Notes: a model not told the origin generated them from the letters alone. A stretch of DNA of 64,000 bases from Eubacteriales bacterium (GCA_045126855.1 JBGVPG010000019.1:5061-69060); one strand, 5' to 3'. Counted from the stretch's first letter, positions 25,223-33,534 are shown. Numbers and translations are program-made.

Positions 25223-25435
25223 AATTCACTTAACACGAAGTGTTAAACTTCACTGCGCTCAAACTTCACTATCAAAGATAACTTCACTGCGAGAGAAACG
25301 AGCAACTTCACCACCGGTCAAAGGTGAAGTTTATGCTACGCATAAGTGAAGTTTGAACTACCTTCAAGTCAAGTTCACCTTCGGTGAGTGAAGTTTTTGC
25401 GTTGCAAAAGATGTTTGCGTACATGGCGCAAACAG
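25223..25435. repeat. Ladder element 1: AACTTCAC x5 then GTGAAGTT x4, units separated by mini-hairpins
   Basis: Motifs and spacer hairpins (taacac-gaa-gtgtta, tatgc-tac-gcata, cacc-ttc-ggtg) read directly; one copy on each arm is a variant. Confidence 0.8.
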
Positions 25436-25554: not shown

Positions 25555-25761
25555 TTATGCCTTGAAGTCGTTGGGCGCCTTGCCAACCTTTGCCTTACGT
25601 CTAGCAAGCTTTCTGAGGCCGGTAGCCTTAGCATACTTCTTCATAAGCTTTTCCATTTCCTTCTTGAGAGCAAGTCTCTCCTTCTCGAGCTTTGCAGCCA
25701 TCTCTGCGCGAGTCTTTACGCTTTCGGTCTGCTCAAGAGATGCGGACTTTCTTTTAGCCAT
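25555..25761 (-). CDS. Small, very basic helical protein (68 aa)
   Basis: GGAGG RBS, codon bias like its neighbours, K/R/A-rich. Confidence 0.75.
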   Translation of the reverse strand: MAKRKSASLEQTESVKTRAEMAAKLEKERLALKKEMEKLMKKYAKATGLRKLARRKAKVGKAPNDFKA

Positions 25762-25780
25762 TTTATATTATCCTCCGTAA

Positions 25781-25912
25781 TTATTTAATAAATTGATTCA
25801 TCAAAGAACTAATATCCCCGTTCTGCTCGATGAAATAAAGCAGAAGGAGTCCGGCTCCAATTGAGAGCAATAGCAGGTAAAGTGCTATCCACCACATGGT
25901 GTTAGTTGACTT
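25781..25912 (-). CDS. In-frame transmembrane extension of the upstream ORF (or 38-aa membrane peptide from ATG 25897)
   Basis: KSTNTMWWIALYLLLLSIGAGLLLLYFIEQNGDISSLMNQFIK* in the same frame directly after TGA 25913-25915. Confidence 0.6.
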   Translation of the reverse strand, partial: KSTNTMWWIALYLLLLSIGAGLLLLYFIEQNGDISSLMNQFIK

Positions 25913-27487
25913 TCAAGCGCGGTGCTTGATCTTCTTAATTACCCAGTTGATGTCCTTAGTGTTCTGGTTGATGAGTCTCTTTGTGGTCTGAACGTCCTTA
26001 CGAAGAGCTCTCTTCTCCTTGCCGTTCTTGTACTCCTTGGTCTTAAGGCGGTACTTAGCAAGAGAAAGGTTAGAGGATGCCTCTACGCTGCTGTTAAGGA
26101 TGCCGTAAAGTCTCTGCTTCTCGCCACTGGATGCGGGGAGACGGAAGATCTTCTTAGCGAGGCTCTTGTTCTTTCTTACGAACTTCTCAGCTGCGTCAGA
26201 TCTGATCTGGCGCCACTTGTTGTTGATGCTTACGCCGTCAAGGGTAACCTCAGAGCCATTGTAGATGGAAAGAAGCTTGGAGTTAAGCTCATCTCTCTTG
26301 TTAAGGAGAGTCATCATCTCGGTACGGAGAGATGCGATCTTAATTCTGTCTGCACGACGCTTCTTGGTCTTCATGGTTACGGGATCGTTGGTGATAACTG
26401 CGTAGTAACGAGCGTTATCCTTCTCCTCATACTTGATAGCTGCCTTGTGAGCCTTCTGAAGAGCCTTGATCTTCTTGTTAGCAAGCTTCTTAACCTTCTT
26501 AACGTCAAATACGTTCTTACCGAATCTGTAGTAGCTGATGTCCTTCTCAGACTCGATGTTGGCAATCTTGTAATCGTAACCCTTGGTGAGAACCGAGAGA
26601 TCCTTGTTAGCCTGCTCAGCGATCTTCTCCTCAAGAGCGGACTTCTGAACTGCCTTCTTGGACTTCTTAGCGTGCTGCTTCTTAGCCTTTGCTGCCTCAA
26701 CTGCGGAAGCTGCGGAAGCTGCTACTGCTGCAACGTCAGCGTCGCTGTTTCTAGCGGAGCCGTCGTTAGCGGTGTAAGAAATTGCGGGAATGGGAGCGTA
26801 GGGCTTGTTAGCAAGGATGTCAGCGGGGATATCCTCGGAAGCGCGGGTGAGCTTAGCTCTGGTGAGTACCTCGTACTCGTCAACGAGTGCGTTGTAACCC
26901 TTGATCTCATTGAGAAGAGCCTTCTTGAGGGACTTAACCTTCTTGGTCTCCTCAAGCTTGTGGCAAACGTGAAGGTTCTCAGCAAGTCTCTCGATAACGT
27001 ATCTCTGATAAGTGAGACAGTTGATGATGAGAAGCACCTTGTTGTAGCCCTCAGCGCCGTTCTTCTGCTCAACGGTTGCTGCGAGTCTGGTCTTTACGTT
27101 GTTAAGTGCCTTGTCGCTCTTAGCGAGGTACTTCTTGAGCTCCTTCTTGTCAAGGATGCTGATGTTAGCGTTGTATGCGCTAACGGTTGCGGATGCGGGA
27201 GCGCCTACGGCGTCAATGCCATAGTTGTTAGAACCTGCAAGGATCTCTGCGGGAAGACCGTAAGAAACCTCTGCTGCCTTCTCGCCGGAAGCCTTGTTGT
27301 AGTTGCTAACGAGAGAATTGTATCTCTTGATCTGGTCCTTGAGGTCCTTTGCGACCTTCTTAGCGCCCTTCTTGTCACCGCTGTCACGGCAAGCTGCAAG
27401 GTCGTCGCAGAATTCAACGAGAATCTGCTTCTCCACAGCAATGCTTTCAACAAGAAGTTCTACCCTGTTCTGCTGCTTTTTACTCAT
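25913..27487 (-). CDS. Lys-rich helical hypothetical protein (524 aa) with two 'YN' repeats
   Basis: RBS GAAGGAG before MSKKQQ; strong codon bias; repeats shared with the upstream giant protein. Confidence 0.85.
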   Translation of the reverse strand: MSKKQQNRVELLVESIAVEKQILVEFCDDLAACRDSGDKKGAKKVAKDLKDQIKRYNSLVSNYNKASGEKAAEVSYGLPAEILAGSNNYGIDAVGAPASATVSAYNANISILDKKELKKYLAKSDKALNNVKTRLAATVEQKNGAEGYNKVLLIINCLTYQRYVIERLAENLHVCHKLEETKKVKSLKKALLNEIKGYNALVDEYEVLTRAKLTRASEDIPADILANKPYAPIPAISYTANDGSARNSDADVAAVAASAASAVEAAKAKKQHAKKSKKAVQKSALEEKIAEQANKDLSVLTKGYDYKIANIESEKDISYYRFGKNVFDVKKVKKLANKKIKALQKAHKAAIKYEEKDNARYYAVITNDPVTMKTKKRRADRIKIASLRTEMMTLLNKRDELNSKLLSIYNGSEVTLDGVSINNKWRQIRSDAAEKFVRKNKSLAKKIFRLPASSGEKQRLYGILNSSVEASSNLSLAKYRLKTKEYKNGKEKRALRKDVQTTKRLINQNTKDINWVIKKIKHRA

Positions 27488-27585
27488 TTTCTTCTCCTTC
27501 TGGGGGCTTGGTACAGCCCCCATCAAATTTATATTTTTTTGTTAATTATTTTGAGTAGTTAGTAAAGATGTGACACATGCTCTTC

Positions 27586-30500
27586 TTAGGAGACCTTCAC
27601 ACCGTTCTCAATGAGAACATCAATGAGCTTACGGCCATACTTGCCGCCAAGCTGATCAACTATTTCACCGAGATTTTTGGAAAGCTCATTTACTTCGCTC
27701 TTGGGGATCTCGAATCCTGCGCAAGCAAGCGCAAATTCACGCTTGAGCTCAAGACGCTCGCCCTCACCGGGCTTGTCGCTCTTTCTTGCATAAGCAATAA
27801 GCGTCTGCATGGGAGCGTGGAGTGCCTCGGATGCTGCTCTGTTCGCCTCAGCGCTGAGGTCGATTGCGTTGATCGCCTTTACGGTCTGATCAACGAGATC
27901 ACCGTACTGAGCAAGGCTATAAGCTCTGCCGCCCGAGAAGATCATGTCGTCTGCCGCAAGAACGCCGATGATTCTACGGCTGTCTCTACCGCCAAGCTGG
28001 TCAACAACCTTGATAACATTTCTTGCGAAGATTTCCTTCTTCTCATTGCTGATGTCAAATCTGTTAATACCTTCAATAAGATCACGCTTGAGCTCGTATC
28101 TCTCGTTCTGAGTAGGTCTGATCTCGGTCTGAACGAAGTGGATCAGCTTTTTCATTGCGATCTGGATAAGATCAACTGCAACCTGATTGTCGGTTCCGTC
28201 GATATTGATGCCGTTGATAACCTGATTGATCTCCTCAACCATATTACCAAGCTCTCTGTCGTTAAGGGTCTTGCAACGCTCGTGTTTGTCAACTCTCTCA
28301 ACGATCTCTCTTACGTAAACAAAGTTCTGAAGCTCGGAGAGCTCGTGTCTCTGACCGGAGGTCAGCTTGTCAAGAAGAGCGGTGATCTCGATAGACTTGA
28401 TCGGAACACGAAGAACCTCGCTGTAAACCTCAATACGCTTGTTATAATCGTTTACGGTAGCGATAAGGATCTTCTTTGCACGGTTGGATCTGGGCTTAAC
28501 GCGAACGTTCTCGCACGCGAGAAGGAGCTTGTGCTGCTCGTTTACGAAGCAGTCAAGGATCGCACCGTAGCGGTGACGCTCAATGTCTCTTGCACCGTAT
28601 CTGATAAGCCAGATGTTTCTGGTGAGAAGAAGAACAACGCTTGCGAGGAACATCACGATATCGTATACGAATCTGATCGCAACGAAGATGATGGGAAGTG
28701 CAGCCCAGATAATACCGATTGCTGCAATAGCCTGAAGCGCACTGTTAACACCGAGGAAGATACCCGCGATAGCGATGATCAGTGCAAAGGCGAGAGTAAC
28801 GATCCAATAAATGGTGTGGTCAACTCTGAGACCTCTGTAGATCAGCTGACGGATACGCATGTTGTAATCGATGCGGAAGTTACGGGCCAGATACTGACGA
28901 AGAACCTTATGTACTCTTGCCTGATACTTGATAGGATCGGAGGCAACGCCAACTGCACGAAGAGTGTTCTTGTTGTAACGTCTCATGCTTCTCGCCTTCT
29001 CGTAACGGATACGGTAGTGGCGGTTTTCGTTTTCCTGGCGTCTCATAGCGGTTCTTACGATTCTCTTGTTGAGAATCTTTACTACCAGAGCGTGGATTCT
29101 CTCCTGCTTATTAAGCTCGAGTCTATCCTGACGTCTGTCAGCAGCCTTATGCTTGCCCTTTTCTCTGAGAGCGGCGATCTTTGCCTTTGCTCTCTTATTA
29201 TCATTGTAGTAAATCTTGCGGAGTCTACGTACCCATGCAGAAACTCTGAGGTTACGAAGGAACTTAAAGAGCTTACCCGGCAGGCTGAGTATCATACCGA
29301 AGAGCGAGTCGTTGATATCCTTCTCAACGTCGTACTCCTTGATTCTATCTGCACTCTCAAGAGCGTACTCAACGAGCTTGTGATAGATCTCGTCGGTGTA
29401 GATAGGAGCCTTGTTGTCATCAATCTTAACTCTGTTACGAAGACTGAGAACGGGAGGTACAGGAGGTCTGTCGGTCTTTCTGTACTTAATTGTGTCGGGA
29501 ATATTGAGAGACAGAAGCTCAAGGTGCTCGTAACGAGCCTTGCCCTTGTTGTACTGTCTAACGAAATCGTTGTAACGCTGAATATCGTCGTGAAGCCATG
29601 CGCTCCAGAGTCTCTGAGATCTTCTTACGCCGGTCTTAACCGCGGAATAGTATCTCTTGCACTCGATGTCGATAATGCCGCCGAGCTTTGCGATAATTCT
29701 GAGAAGCTCCTTATCGCTGTGCTTAACGCGTCTGTTAACGACCTCAACGAATTCATCGGTGGGAGGAAGAAGTGCACGAAGGAAGCCCTGGCTTCTGAGA
29801 AGAAGTCTTCTCATAATGCGCACGTTGATCTCGCTACCAACCAGCTTCCACCAGTTTGCAACGTTATCAATGGAGGTCATGCTTCTTGCTCTGAGAGCTC
29901 TTGCAAATCTCTCCTCAATCATCTTGGTCTCAAGGTCAAGAGGAGTCTCAACCTCAATACCGGAGTGAAGGTCCTTAGCATCCTCCTCAGCCTCATCGGT
30001 GTATCTGGCGTCAACGCCTCTCTTCTGAATACCGGAGAAGGGATCGGTCGTGTTAGCCGCACCGAGGATGAGAGAATCCTGGTCGTATCTTCCGGAGTCA
30101 AGAACGATAGCACCGTCGGTGCCGGTAAGCATCATAGGAGTACCGGTGAAGGGAATGCTGGTCTCGCCGGAAGCATTGAATCCGATAAGAGGTACGCCAC
30201 CGGGAGTCATACCCAGAATGGTCATACCGTCGAAGTCAGCCTTGAGGAAGGGAACGCCCATATCGGTTGCATAACCCATAGCGCCAACAGACATTACAGG
30301 TGCATTGCCGTCGCCTGCCTTAGAGCCGGTAGTGCCGGTGTAGAGGCCGTAACCGTGCCATCTGTCACCAACGGTTCTCTCACGACCGTTAATGGTCTCG
30401 ATAACCTCTCTGCAGCATACGATCTCGGGGAACTTGATAAGGTGACCGTATCTGATGATCTCATCAGCAACGGTGGTGGAAACCTCCGCGAACTTAACGC

Positions 30501-33500
30501 CGATCATATCACTGAGCTTACGAGCAGTATTGTTGTGAGCGGTGATAGCATCAACGAACTTCTTCTTATATCTGACGAGAACGTTGCGTGTGAAGGTGAT
30601 TCTACCGTAGTTACGGTACTTAATAAGCACCTTGTTGATACCCGAAAGTCTCTCTCTCTCAAGAACGAGACGCTCAAGGAGAAGTCTTGCGGCATTTCTC
30701 TCGGTGCAGTCACGCATATAGCGGACTTTAAGTCTGTAAACCTTACGGCTGTATTTTGCGTTAATTCTGTAAAGCTTCTTCTGATATTCCTTACCGTGGC
30801 GGTCAGACTCGTGAACAACAGTCTCAAGGTTGAGGATCTTAGCGGTGTGCTCCTCGTTGAGGCGCTTCAGCTTGAGCTCAAATCTTGCATTCTTCCTGTC
30901 GTTTCTGTTCTGTCTGCCCTGAAGTCCACTCTTAGAGAACAACAGCGATTCGTCGACGAACCAGATCTCGATGTTGGTGCAAACTCTGTGCCACCAAGCA
31001 ACGATGGGCTGTGTCCAAACGAAGAGGTGCTGCCAGAATCCAATGGGATGCCACCAGTTGGTTGCAGGCATCTCGTCGGTCATAACGTCGAAGACGAAGG
31101 GAGAGTTGATAACGGTTGTTTCAACCGAACGGTTCTCGGTAAGTCTGTAGTGCTGCATCAGAAGGGGCGTATAAATGCCCGAGCGCCACAGTCTGGGCTT
31201 CTCATAAGTAGAATCCTTGAGGGGATCCTTGGGGAATACCTCTATGTAGTTATCCTTATATGTGATAACGGGAATTCTGAGCTGCTCTGCAGAATTGATA
31301 AGCTCCTTGGCGGTAGCAAGAGGAATTCTGGAGAACTGCTCGCCAACGATTGACATATAGTCGATCGCACGGCCGTTATAGAGATCAATATTCTTGTAAA
31401 GTGCTCTTGCATTGCTTCTTGCAAGGTCCTGACGGTTAAGTCTCTTGGCAACCGAGATACAAATGCGTCTTACCTCAATGAGGTTAGAGATAACTCTGAG
31501 GTTCTCAACGAGAGCGGTTACAACGCCGTGCTCGTCGAAGGCCTTAGAGATCGCACGCTCGGTTCTGCGGAGTGCTCTCTTGAAGAACTTGATAGCCTTC
31601 TCGCACTTAACCTCGAACTGGTCGAACTCGTCTGCGGTGAGAACGAGATCTGCAGAATCTCTGAGAGACTCAAGCATAACTGCCGCAACGGCAGATGCTC
31701 TGTCAACCATAGCGGATTCGGGAGAAAGAGAGGTTGTGCTCTTGAGCTTGTTGCTCTTCTCAAGAATCTTTGCAGATGTCTCTGCATACGCCTCAAGATC
31801 GGGATCGATATCCGAGCAAACAGCCATGCTGATAACCTTGGAGCTCTGTCCAACGGTCTCAATAAGCTCACGCTTATACGCTACAGCAGGGAATACGATC
31901 TCGCTGCTGCGACAAGCCTGCTCAATAATACCTGCAGGAAGAAGGTCAAGGTCGATGCCAACGGTTGCGGAGCAACGCTTTGCAGCATTGTTATACTCGG
32001 TAACTGCGTTAGCGAAGAACTTTTCTGCTACCTTTTTCTGGCTGTAACGGCCCTTGCGGTATACGTTACGGAGATACTCGTAAGCAAGAACAAGCTTTTC
32101 TCTCTCGAGAGCAAATCTCGCAACCTCAAGACGGATAGCGGTTCTCTCGAAGGCGCTTGCAGCCTTTGCAGTGCTGATGCCTGCAAGTCTCTTACCGTAC
32201 TTGATATTAATCTTGAATACTCTGTTCTTATATTCATCAGTAGCGCGCTCGTTGATAGGAGTTCTCATTTCGAGAGCATCAAGCTCGCTCTGGTATCTCT
32301 TAGCAAGAAGCTGAGTCTCAGCTATCTGCTTTTCGATACGGGTAGCCTCACGCTGAACCTTCTTGGTTGCACGTCTGATCTTGCGACCATAGGATGCGCA
32401 GCCTGCCTTGGAACGGGGAGGCTTGATATTGAGAAGGAGATCGTCTGCGCCGATCACGGGAGTGATAACGGTGGTAGATGCCGCCTCTTCAGCGGTAAGC
32501 TCCTCATCGGGGAATACCTGTACGTAGCTTTCGTCAAAGCTAAGCTCGGGGATCACGCCAAGCGACTTGCCCGAAGCGATATTCTCGGGAAGGAAGACGG
32601 AAAGTCTTGTAAGCTGCTCACCTGTGATCGAGGAGTAGGAAATAACGTAATCGTTATATCTGTCGATCTCGCAGTGCAGAGCCTTACGGGCTTCCTTGTA
32701 ATAGGTGTAAGCCTTTACTCTTACGTAGTTCTCAAGGTTGTTACATCTGACCTCAAGAAGCTTGCCGCAAATCTTAATAATTCCGGCAAGAATAACGGGT
32801 GTTTCCTTTTCATCACGGTTTGCCTCAAGTGCCTTCTGGCCTGTCTTGAGAGCACCCTCAAGGTTCTTGATAGCCTCCTTGCTATGCTTCGCATAGATCT
32901 TGAGACTGTCCTCGCTGTTTGTCAGCTTTTCACCCTCAGCCTTAATGGCCGAAACAACCTCGTCGTGGATTACGAGATCCTCGGGGTCGATCACTACAGG
33001 ATCGTCCTCAAACACCTCTTCCTCTTCGGCTTCCTCGCCCTCGCTATCACTCTCGGGTTCGGTCGCTTCATCGGACTCTTCCGATTCGTCAGCGGTCTCT
33101 TCTGCGATCTCCTCGGCTGTCTCTTCAGCAGGTGCTTCAGCAGTCTCTTCAGCAGCTTCCTCGGCGGTCTCTTCAACCGTCTCCTCCGCAACCTCATAAG
33201 CTACCTCTTCGTCCGTCTGCTCGAGAACCTCCTCGGTCTCCTCGCTCTCCGTTTCGCCGACCTCTTCGGTTGTCTCCTCGGAAAGTTCCTCTTGTGCCTC
33301 GGCTGCCTCAGCCTCAGCCTCCTCGGTCTCTGCTACGGGCTCTTCAGCCTCGGGCTCGACCTGAGTCTCGGATTCTTCCGGTTCAGTATTCAATGGCTCT
33401 TCAACAGTTGCCTCAGGTTCGGAATTTACGGTCTCTTCGATCGCTGCTTCCTCAGCCTCAACAGACTTTTCCATCTGCTCGGTTTCCTGATTTTCAGGCT

Positions 33501-33534
33501 CCTGCATAGGCATATTTTTTTCCTTGTCTGCCAT
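27586..33534 (-). CDS. Giant hypothetical membrane protein (1982 aa): acidic N-tail, six 'YN' repeats, TM hairpin, duplicated C-terminal domain
   Basis: Long ORF with genome-typical codon usage; TAATG overlap with the CBS gene; no recognisable catalytic motif. Confidence 0.9.
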   Translation of the reverse strand: MADKEKNMPMQEPENQETEQMEKSVEAEEAAIEETVNSEPEATVEEPLNTEPEESETQVEPEAEEPVAETEEAEAEAAEAQEELSEETTEEVGETESEETEEVLEQTDEEVAYEVAEETVEETAEEAAEETAEAPAEETAEEIAEETADESEESDEATEPESDSEGEEAEEEEVFEDDPVVIDPEDLVIHDEVVSAIKAEGEKLTNSEDSLKIYAKHSKEAIKNLEGALKTGQKALEANRDEKETPVILAGIIKICGKLLEVRCNNLENYVRVKAYTYYKEARKALHCEIDRYNDYVISYSSITGEQLTRLSVFLPENIASGKSLGVIPELSFDESYVQVFPDEELTAEEAASTTVITPVIGADDLLLNIKPPRSKAGCASYGRKIRRATKKVQREATRIEKQIAETQLLAKRYQSELDALEMRTPINERATDEYKNRVFKINIKYGKRLAGISTAKAASAFERTAIRLEVARFALEREKLVLAYEYLRNVYRKGRYSQKKVAEKFFANAVTEYNNAAKRCSATVGIDLDLLPAGIIEQACRSSEIVFPAVAYKRELIETVGQSSKVISMAVCSDIDPDLEAYAETSAKILEKSNKLKSTTSLSPESAMVDRASAVAAVMLESLRDSADLVLTADEFDQFEVKCEKAIKFFKRALRRTERAISKAFDEHGVVTALVENLRVISNLIEVRRICISVAKRLNRQDLARSNARALYKNIDLYNGRAIDYMSIVGEQFSRIPLATAKELINSAEQLRIPVITYKDNYIEVFPKDPLKDSTYEKPRLWRSGIYTPLLMQHYRLTENRSVETTVINSPFVFDVMTDEMPATNWWHPIGFWQHLFVWTQPIVAWWHRVCTNIEIWFVDESLLFSKSGLQGRQNRNDRKNARFELKLKRLNEEHTAKILNLETVVHESDRHGKEYQKKLYRINAKYSRKVYRLKVRYMRDCTERNAARLLLERLVLERERLSGINKVLIKYRNYGRITFTRNVLVRYKKKFVDAITAHNNTARKLSDMIGVKFAEVSTTVADEIIRYGHLIKFPEIVCCREVIETINGRERTVGDRWHGYGLYTGTTGSKAGDGNAPVMSVGAMGYATDMGVPFLKADFDGMTILGMTPGGVPLIGFNASGETSIPFTGTPMMLTGTDGAIVLDSGRYDQDSLILGAANTTDPFSGIQKRGVDARYTDEAEEDAKDLHSGIEVETPLDLETKMIEERFARALRARSMTSIDNVANWWKLVGSEINVRIMRRLLLRSQGFLRALLPPTDEFVEVVNRRVKHSDKELLRIIAKLGGIIDIECKRYYSAVKTGVRRSQRLWSAWLHDDIQRYNDFVRQYNKGKARYEHLELLSLNIPDTIKYRKTDRPPVPPVLSLRNRVKIDDNKAPIYTDEIYHKLVEYALESADRIKEYDVEKDINDSLFGMILSLPGKLFKFLRNLRVSAWVRRLRKIYYNDNKRAKAKIAALREKGKHKAADRRQDRLELNKQERIHALVVKILNKRIVRTAMRRQENENRHYRIRYEKARSMRRYNKNTLRAVGVASDPIKYQARVHKVLRQYLARNFRIDYNMRIRQLIYRGLRVDHTIYWIVTLAFALIIAIAGIFLGVNSALQAIAAIGIIWAALPIIFVAIRFVYDIVMFLASVVLLLTRNIWLIRYGARDIERHRYGAILDCFVNEQHKLLLACENVRVKPRSNRAKKILIATVNDYNKRIEVYSEVLRVPIKSIEITALLDKLTSGQRHELSELQNFVYVREIVERVDKHERCKTLNDRELGNMVEEINQVINGINIDGTDNQVAVDLIQIAMKKLIHFVQTEIRPTQNERYELKRDLIEGINRFDISNEKKEIFARNVIKVVDQLGGRDSRRIIGVLAADDMIFSGGRAYSLAQYGDLVDQTVKAINAIDLSAEANRAASEALHAPMQTLIAYARKSDKPGEGERLELKREFALACAGFEIPKSEVNELSKNLGEIVDQLGGKYGRKLIDVLIENGVKVS

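Follow-up and report, generated by a model that had tools for sequence, protein, structure and literature searches.

Can a bacterial gene keep a membrane anchor behind its stop codon? On the minus strand of the window (the whole 64,000-nucleotide stretch of DNA that was analysed, in whose coordinates positions are given unless a contig is named), a gene for a 524-aa protein ends at a TGA codon, and the same reading frame then continues through further sense codons that encode a transmembrane (TM) helix. An earlier note on this DNA had proposed that the UGA is leaky and that soluble and tail-anchored isoforms are made from the one gene. To our knowledge, few chromosomal cases of readthrough are known in bacteria; those of viruses and eukaryotes are well documented.

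Layout of the locus

Re-reading the minus strand reproduced the described arrangement exactly: the 524-aa ORF ends in KKIKHRA-TGA and is followed by 43 sense codons up to a TAA (Table 1). The C-terminus of the ORF is INWVIKKIKHRA, which closes in KKIKHRA, and the extension translates as KSTNTMWWIALYLLLLSIGAGLLLLYFIEQNGDISSLMNQFIK. In the ORF listing, the same ORF has an alternative start, an upstream TTG at 27526, which gives 537 aa. The extension contains a single TM helix with a Kyte-Doolittle 19-mer maximum of 2.39; the basic KKIKHRA precedes it and it is modelled as helix 532-555, in line with the earlier description of one clean helix behind a basic stretch. Likewise, the extension does reach almost to the next ribosome-binding site, with GGAGG at 25776-25772 lying just past the TAA at 25783-25781. 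An in-frame ATG occurs inside the extension at 25897, 15 nt past the TGA. Inspection of the sequence found no GGAGG-like motif upstream of this ATG, as expected from the note, which had seen no obvious Shine-Dalgarno sequence there. The stop context is CGC GCT TGA AAG in the window and CGY GYT/AAA TGA AGG in 12 of 12 relatives.

Table 1. Coordinates of the features at the locus and of the tRNA-Trp gene
Feature	Position	Strand	Remarks
Gene body, 524-aa, all-alpha, highly charged	25916..27487	-	Start is ATG 27487; orthologs begin MSK/MSN
In-frame TGA, proposed readthrough site	25913..25915	-	+4 base A
43-codon in-frame extension: KSTNT, TM helix and 15-residue tail	25784..25912	-	
TM helix MWWIALYLLLLSIGAGLLLLYFI	25829..25897	-	Basic KKIKHRA-(stop)-K precedes
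TAA closing the extended form	25781..25783	-	
GGAGG (25776-25772) and gene for 68-aa basic protein, ATG 25761	25555..25776	-	Directly past the extension
1982-aa membrane giant, paralogous xYNxxVxxY modules	27586..33534	-	Upstream of the 524-aa gene
Sole tRNA-Trp(CCA) found	G000 contig C6, 7690-7765		Outside the window; 4-bp anticodon stem

The gene at 25555-25761 (-) encodes a very basic 68-aa protein (MAKK...TEAIKTRAGMAEKLEKE) that is kept in all relatives, and the gene is present on the 3' side in every one of them; a Pfam search with this protein gave only a sub-threshold match to Scm3. At two loci (L028 and L036) the stop of the tail overlaps the ATG of the 68-aa gene (TAATG), and at L031 the same overlap (TAATG) is formed by the last stop of an upstream frame that lacks the tail. 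These overlaps suggest translational coupling of the 68-aa gene with the frame upstream. Further downstream, the same strand carries rimP, nusA, ylxR, an L7Ae-like ORF and infB. A sub-threshold Rfam match to Gut-1 RNA lies at 25322-25399 (+), in the intergenic DNA that separates the 68-aa gene from rimP, with 37.2 bits against a gathering threshold of 50 and an E value of 1.7e-05. Long antisense ORFs lie opposite real genes at 25922-27562 (+; 546 aa) and 27577-31353 (+; 1258 aa), and such ORFs are a by-product of codon bias. They spoiled a first, crude list of ORFs in the genome, and a self-trained gene set was used instead.

Predicted protein

No Pfam family was identified in the 537-aa, 38-aa or 1982-aa products. 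Based on a 25-row alignment, AlphaFold2 modelled the readthrough product with helices only (mean pLDDT 76.4), and the tail appears as the helix at residues 532-555 of 568. A Foldseek search of the PDB returned no match at E ≤ 0.001, and the ESM Atlas gave no usable match. The N-terminus (MSKKQQNRVELL) is polar, as judged by eye. The readthrough form has the features by which a tail-anchored protein is recognised, namely one C-terminal TM helix with a basic N-terminal side and, by eye, a polar N-terminus; the basic stretch and the polar N-terminus predict an anchor with the N-terminus inside and the C-terminus outside.

Conservation of the stop and of the tail among relatives

We searched 213 genomes of the same genus, of which 36 had a match at E ≤ 1e-40. 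Full-length close orthologs with 62-100% identity were found in 17 of the 213, the window included, and one further genome contributed an N-terminal fragment, located where a contig ends. Twelve of the 17 orthologs carry one in-frame TGA, with the alignment continuing through the tail to query residues 566-580, and the other five terminate in TAA. A metagenome scan identified two loci only, one with TGA AGG and a tail and one with TAA and no tail. TGA followed by an open, TM-coding tail is therefore found at 13 loci in total (12 genus genomes and one metagenome contig), and TAA without a tail in six relatives (five genomes and the metagenome locus). A sample of 400 other family genomes, seven from this genus and 393 from 96 other genera, contained no close ortholog at E ≤ 1e-100.

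In nucleotide terms, the sequence around the stop in the TGA species is AAG AAG ATY AAG AAG CGY GYT TGA AGG, and further on come ...ACG TTY TGG TGG and codons for a hydrophobic segment. The corresponding codons in the TAA species are CGT AAG TAA TTT TAA, CGT GCT TAA TT... or CGT ACC TAA TAG, and the helix is absent behind these stops. A scrambled remnant of the tail is present in one of them (L033; TDNKFTYLLLLL), and the other TAA species do not have the stretch; the tail DNA of the TAA lineages has thus been deleted or scrambled, and the 68-aa gene has been retained.

Among 108 database homologs, 101 (50-99% identity) terminate at the position of the TGA, with A, V, T, K, G or S as the residues after their final ...KR, and none of these runs through. 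Six, the most distant (32-44% identity), have the C-terminal helix fused with no stop, and the remaining one is a fragment. An in-frame stop conserved between species at one position, as expected of programmed readthrough, is what the 13 loci and 101 of the 108 homologs show, and aligning the orthologous loci, the check that the earlier note had suggested, revealed a conserved downstream TM tail at each of the 13 loci. Gene callers end the protein at the TGA, and all 101 database entries that stop there are without the anchor.

Ancestry of the TGA and of the fused helix

Maximum-likelihood analysis grouped the 17 orthologs in one clade (100/99), apart from ten fused homologs. Both branches of the deepest split in the clade, L035 and L036 versus the rest, contain TGA, and the TAA species lie nested within the TGA species; one of the TAA species, L033, stands beside L032 (TGA) with weak support. 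It follows from this branching order that the common ancestor of the clade had TGA with a tail and that a change to TAA took place one or two times.

The helix of the fused homologs aligns to the tail helix of the TGA species. The column that corresponds to the TGA is variable in the fused homologs (A, G, I, S, L or a gap), with no conserved Cys or Trp. In two genomes, G061 and G080, single ORFs of 1767 and 1786 aa match both neighbouring genes of the window: they align with the N-terminal part of the 1982-aa protein at E values of 2e-24 and 3e-33, and with the 524-aa gene plus tail at 3e-106 and 2e-86. These single ORFs indicate that the 1982-aa and 524-aa genes derive from one tail-anchored protein, and they suggest that a gene fission in this clade split the two. 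The 1982-aa and 524-aa proteins also share repeated xYNxxVxxY modules (BLASTP E 2e-06). Judging from these alignments, the ancestor of the clade's gene is one that was fused to the helix.

Selection on the tail

The 13 tails, the window's included, are 41 to 50 codons long. Frame 0 is free of stops in all of them, each other frame contains between zero and six stops per tail, and the indels between tails are whole codons. Differences at codon positions 1, 2 and 3 of the tail were 0.44, 0.27 and 0.55; the low value at position 2 fits conserved hydrophobic residues. Using the Nei-Gojobori method with JC correction on five phylogenetically independent pairs, we obtained a dN/dS of 0.37 for the tail (bootstrap 95% CI 0.21-0.54; none of 2000 replicates reached 1), a figure that is rough since pS is near saturation at 0.62. 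The dN/dS of the body was 0.22, and pN was 0.36 in the tail versus 0.11 in the body, so the tail evolves about threefold faster. The conserved residues just past the stop are an R and then T-F-W-W, and the tail is in every case in frame with the upstream gene. By these measures, the tail is under purifying selection, open and in phase, with no conserved start.

The absence of a conserved start bears on the possibility that the tail is made as a small membrane peptide of its own (38 aa in the window), by termination-reinitiation or internal initiation, and serves as the split-gene partner of the soluble protein. The window's ATG lies close enough behind the TGA for re-initiation to make the helix in this species, and two other loci (L026 and L027) have an ATG at tail codon 2. 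These three, with the window's start at codon 6, are however the only tails among the 13 with a start codon ahead of the helix: in seven the first ATG, GTG or TTG is inside or behind the helix, and in three an in-frame ATG, GTG or TTG is absent altogether. Where other tails conserve T-F-W-W right after the stop, the window has Met in place of the Phe, the frame never departs from that of the upstream gene, and the GGAGG-like motif is missing ahead of the window's ATG. The re-initiated 38-aa peptide mentioned in the earlier note thus stands as a possibility for the window's species and two others, but it fails for the clade, in which the ATG is not conserved and Phe mostly takes the place of Met; as an account of the tail we consider it improbable.

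We assign a similarly small chance to the tail being untranslated, whether as a slowly decaying remnant of the fused ancestor or through a DNA- or RNA-level role for the 68-aa gene. The faster nonsynonymous change of the tail would suit such a reading, and so would the frequency with which open frames of this length occur after a TGA. The self-trained gene set of the source genome holds 1260 genes, which make up 85% of the genome's bases. Of the 260 genes in this set that end in TGA, 25 stay open in frame for at least 43 codons past the stop, as do 9 of the 85 TGA-ended genes with nothing downstream. By these counts, the open frame by itself is not beyond chance, and its conservation across relatives is what exceeds chance. 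Against an untranslated tail stand the dN/dS below 1 in every bootstrap replicate and the lack of any stop in 13 of 13 tails, although the bodies of proteins within the TGA/TAA clade differ by up to 38%. The tail DNA itself is also dispensable, because the TAA lineages lost it yet kept the 68-aa gene, and the tails have neither a conserved RNA fold nor an Rfam match. Readthrough best explains the tail because the tail is selected as protein, lacks a start and is always in the upstream phase. The stop, too, appears to be kept by selection, since eight of the nine possible point mutations in TGA would turn it into a sense codon, yet no close ortholog runs through.

Another TGA-ended gene was observed on G000 contig C9 (38131-38986, +), where 284 aa are followed by 51 in-frame codons that hold an ATG and a strongly hydrophobic segment (Kyte-Doolittle 2.83). 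This downstream stretch might encode a small membrane protein of its own, or the locus might be a second candidate for readthrough.

Decoding of the UGA

TGA is a normal stop in this genome: it ends 260 of the 1260 modelled genes, and RF2 (prfB) is present with 494.7 bits, over the cut-off. The prfB gene (G000 contig C4, 1139-2185, +) matches profile positions 5-353 with no internal stop, and it may therefore lack the usual programmed +1 frameshift site. ARAGORN identified 41 tRNAs, a set that is incomplete (none for Ala or Ile) in a source genome that is 93% complete; none of the 41 is a tRNA-Sec or has a UCA anticodon. In five TGA-bearing genomes, SelB was over the cut-off in none, and tRNA-Sec was likewise found in none of the five.

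These data make it very unlikely that the UGA is decoded by dedicated machinery, that is, as selenocysteine, by a suppressor tRNA or under a lineage-wide reassigned code. A suppressor tRNA could be among the unassembled parts of the genome, given the incomplete tRNA set. The selenoprotein reading is not supported, since SelB above the cut-off and tRNA-Sec were both missing from the five genomes searched and no conserved hairpin follows the UGA. A UGA-reassigned code (table 4 or 25) is not supported either, as TGA is used as a stop, RF2 is present and the UCA anticodon is absent from the tRNAs found. The TGA column of the fused relatives, with no conserved Cys or Trp, argues in the same direction.

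Past the stop, RNAalifold found no conserved RNA structure (-0.08 kcal/mol), and the stop site has no Rfam match. A hairpin of 6-7 bp that includes the window's TGA is partly kept in relatives; it would unwind on the ribosome, and we gave it no role. The +4 base is A in 13 of 13 loci, and 12 of the 13 have TGA AGG, in which the codon after the stop also encodes the conserved Arg.

The sole tRNA-Trp(CCA) found has a C27-U43 mismatch, a 7-nt loop (CTCCAAA), and retains A9 and G24; it therefore has every feature of the Blastocrithidia-like type (27:43 unpaired, 7-nt loop, A9/G24 unchanged). The same tRNA-Trp is present in 11 of 12 TGA genomes (none was found in the twelfth), in four of five TAA genomes and in several fused outgroups. 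An identical copy occurs in 29 genus genomes, G000 included, and elsewhere in the genus the 27:43 pair is C-G, G-U or A-U. Because this 4-bp-stem tRNA-Trp is also found in TAA species and fused outgroups, it predates the TGA and can be no more than permissive. In E. coli, a Blastocrithidia-like 4-bp-stem tRNA-Trp raised UGA reporter readthrough about 2.5-fold (PMC13092985), and the available text of that study leaves the native role of such a tRNA open. In the accessible portion of another E. coli study, TGA is described as the leakiest stop, read mostly as Trp, and reporters show that G at +4 raises and T at +4 lowers readthrough (PMC11126739). For wild-type B. subtilis, a quoted figure of 6% UGA readthrough is given in the part of PMC7918605 available to us.

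A genome-wide sign of leaky UGA codons was also considered and rejected. A backup stop within five codons follows 129 of 260 TGA genes versus about 32% of TAA genes; the excess was not significant once genes with downstream overlap were dropped (33 of 85 versus 132 of 436; Fisher p 0.13).

Support for the stop in independent runs

Between 25781 and 25930, contigs from four runs of four studies (two DNA, two RNA-library) had zero differing letters, in a comparison at contig level that could hide rare or minor variants; each of them showed strain differences elsewhere in the 901 bases compared. The organism occurs in bovine gut samples. The earlier note had called for a check of the support at 25913-25915, and the TGA there is identical in all four. 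Both an assembly error and a recent TGG>TGA nonsense mutation, which it had listed as alternatives, are excluded, the former by the agreement of stop and tail across the four runs and the latter by a TGA that is common to 12 other loci and ancestral in the tree; the chance that a sequencing or assembly error, or a mutation private to the source genome, produced the stop is negligible. One RNA-library contig, from run X16, joins 25692 to 25912 and skips 219 bases including the tail. This contig, which is without 25693-25911, is probably from a tail-less relative.

Proposed mechanism

We consider conserved UGA readthrough, giving a major soluble and a minor tail-anchored form, to be the probable explanation of this locus, at roughly three chances in four. 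The proposal of a leaky UGA that yields two isoforms is favoured by the conserved TGA, the start-less TM tail, the loss of the tail in TAA lineages and the fused ancestors. One mRNA would give two proteins. Most ribosomes would end at the UGA and release a soluble, cytoplasmic, helical protein of 524 aa, and a minority would decode the UGA with a near-cognate tRNA, most likely the 4-bp-stem tRNA-Trp(CCA). Readthrough would add 44 residues: a linker of basic or polar character, the single TM helix and, on the outside, a short tail. The extended product would be a tail-anchored membrane isoform oriented N-in, C-out. We infer that the tail is translated, that this happens by readthrough with insertion of Trp, and that the ratio of the two forms is low, fixed and maintained by selection. 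More speculatively, the leakiness conferred by the 4-bp-stem tRNA-Trp might have let one nonsense change at a domain boundary turn a fused tail-anchored protein into a selected, fixed-ratio switch between soluble and membrane-bound isoforms, with a ratio that is perhaps tunable by growth; we hold this scenario only tentatively, with the odds against it.

Comparison with known systems

The coat protein gene of phage Q-beta ends in a leaky UGA that tRNA-Trp reads in a few percent of passages, and a minority of molecules, the A1 protein, thereby gains a functional C-terminal extension. The present locus would resemble that system in having a leaky UGA at the gene end and a C-terminally extended minority. 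The Q-beta product is a structural protein of a phage, whereas here the gene is chromosomal, belongs to Clostridia, has a membrane anchor as its extension and descends from a fused ancestor.

In fungi and animals, the accessible text of PMC4207609 describes UGA readthrough that gives dual localisation through peroxisomal targeting of metabolic enzymes. As in those cases, a short conserved extension would relocate a share of the protein; they are, however, eukaryotic and depend on a defined short context motif and a targeting signal, whereas the present candidate is bacterial and carries a TM helix. For prokaryotic in-frame stops whose surrounding sequence has a dN/dS below 1, readthrough has been the interpretation (Belinky et al. 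2021, PMC7918605), and the portion of that paper available to us describes most such stops as short-lived, at roughly the level of SNPs, and as deleterious over long times. Unlike those stops, the TGA described here has been kept across at least 13 sampled loci and sits exactly at a domain boundary, and because of that position either product makes a plausible protein. The relatives that lost the tail serve as its natural controls.

The genome's only detected tRNA-Trp is like the type studied in PMC13092985 in its C27-U43 pair, 7-nt loop and A9/G24. That paper, in its available text, names no natural target gene in the standard code; the present locus offers a candidate target, with the qualification that the tRNA is also found in genomes that do not carry the TGA. 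The similarity to stochastic readthrough in E. coli lies in the UGA stop and the expected Trp, and context and environment alter the rate there according to the accessible part of PMC11126739. Whereas that work concerns reporters and proteome noise, the site here is conserved, and its +4 A is neither the favourable G nor the unfavourable T.

A literature search, with most subscription journals and supplements outside its coverage, did not turn up a bacterium in which readthrough produces a membrane anchor. A gene of gut Clostridia that keeps a membrane anchor behind a long-preserved in-frame UGA would exemplify a kind of decoding rarely documented for bacterial chromosomal genes. The locus offers a concrete native test case for the 4-bp-stem tRNA-Trp in standard-code bacteria, a question that PMC13092985 leaves open in its available text, and the predicted outcome, a change of cell location, is easily assayed. 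If the proposed switch is true, it would be a first natural target gene of this tRNA outside reassigned codes. The relatives form a natural series from fused genes to TGA with a tail to TAA without one, in which stop and tail both appear to be selected; under the tentative scenario above, the gene would be a readthrough switch at UGA that selection has maintained over a long time in a bacterium with the standard code.
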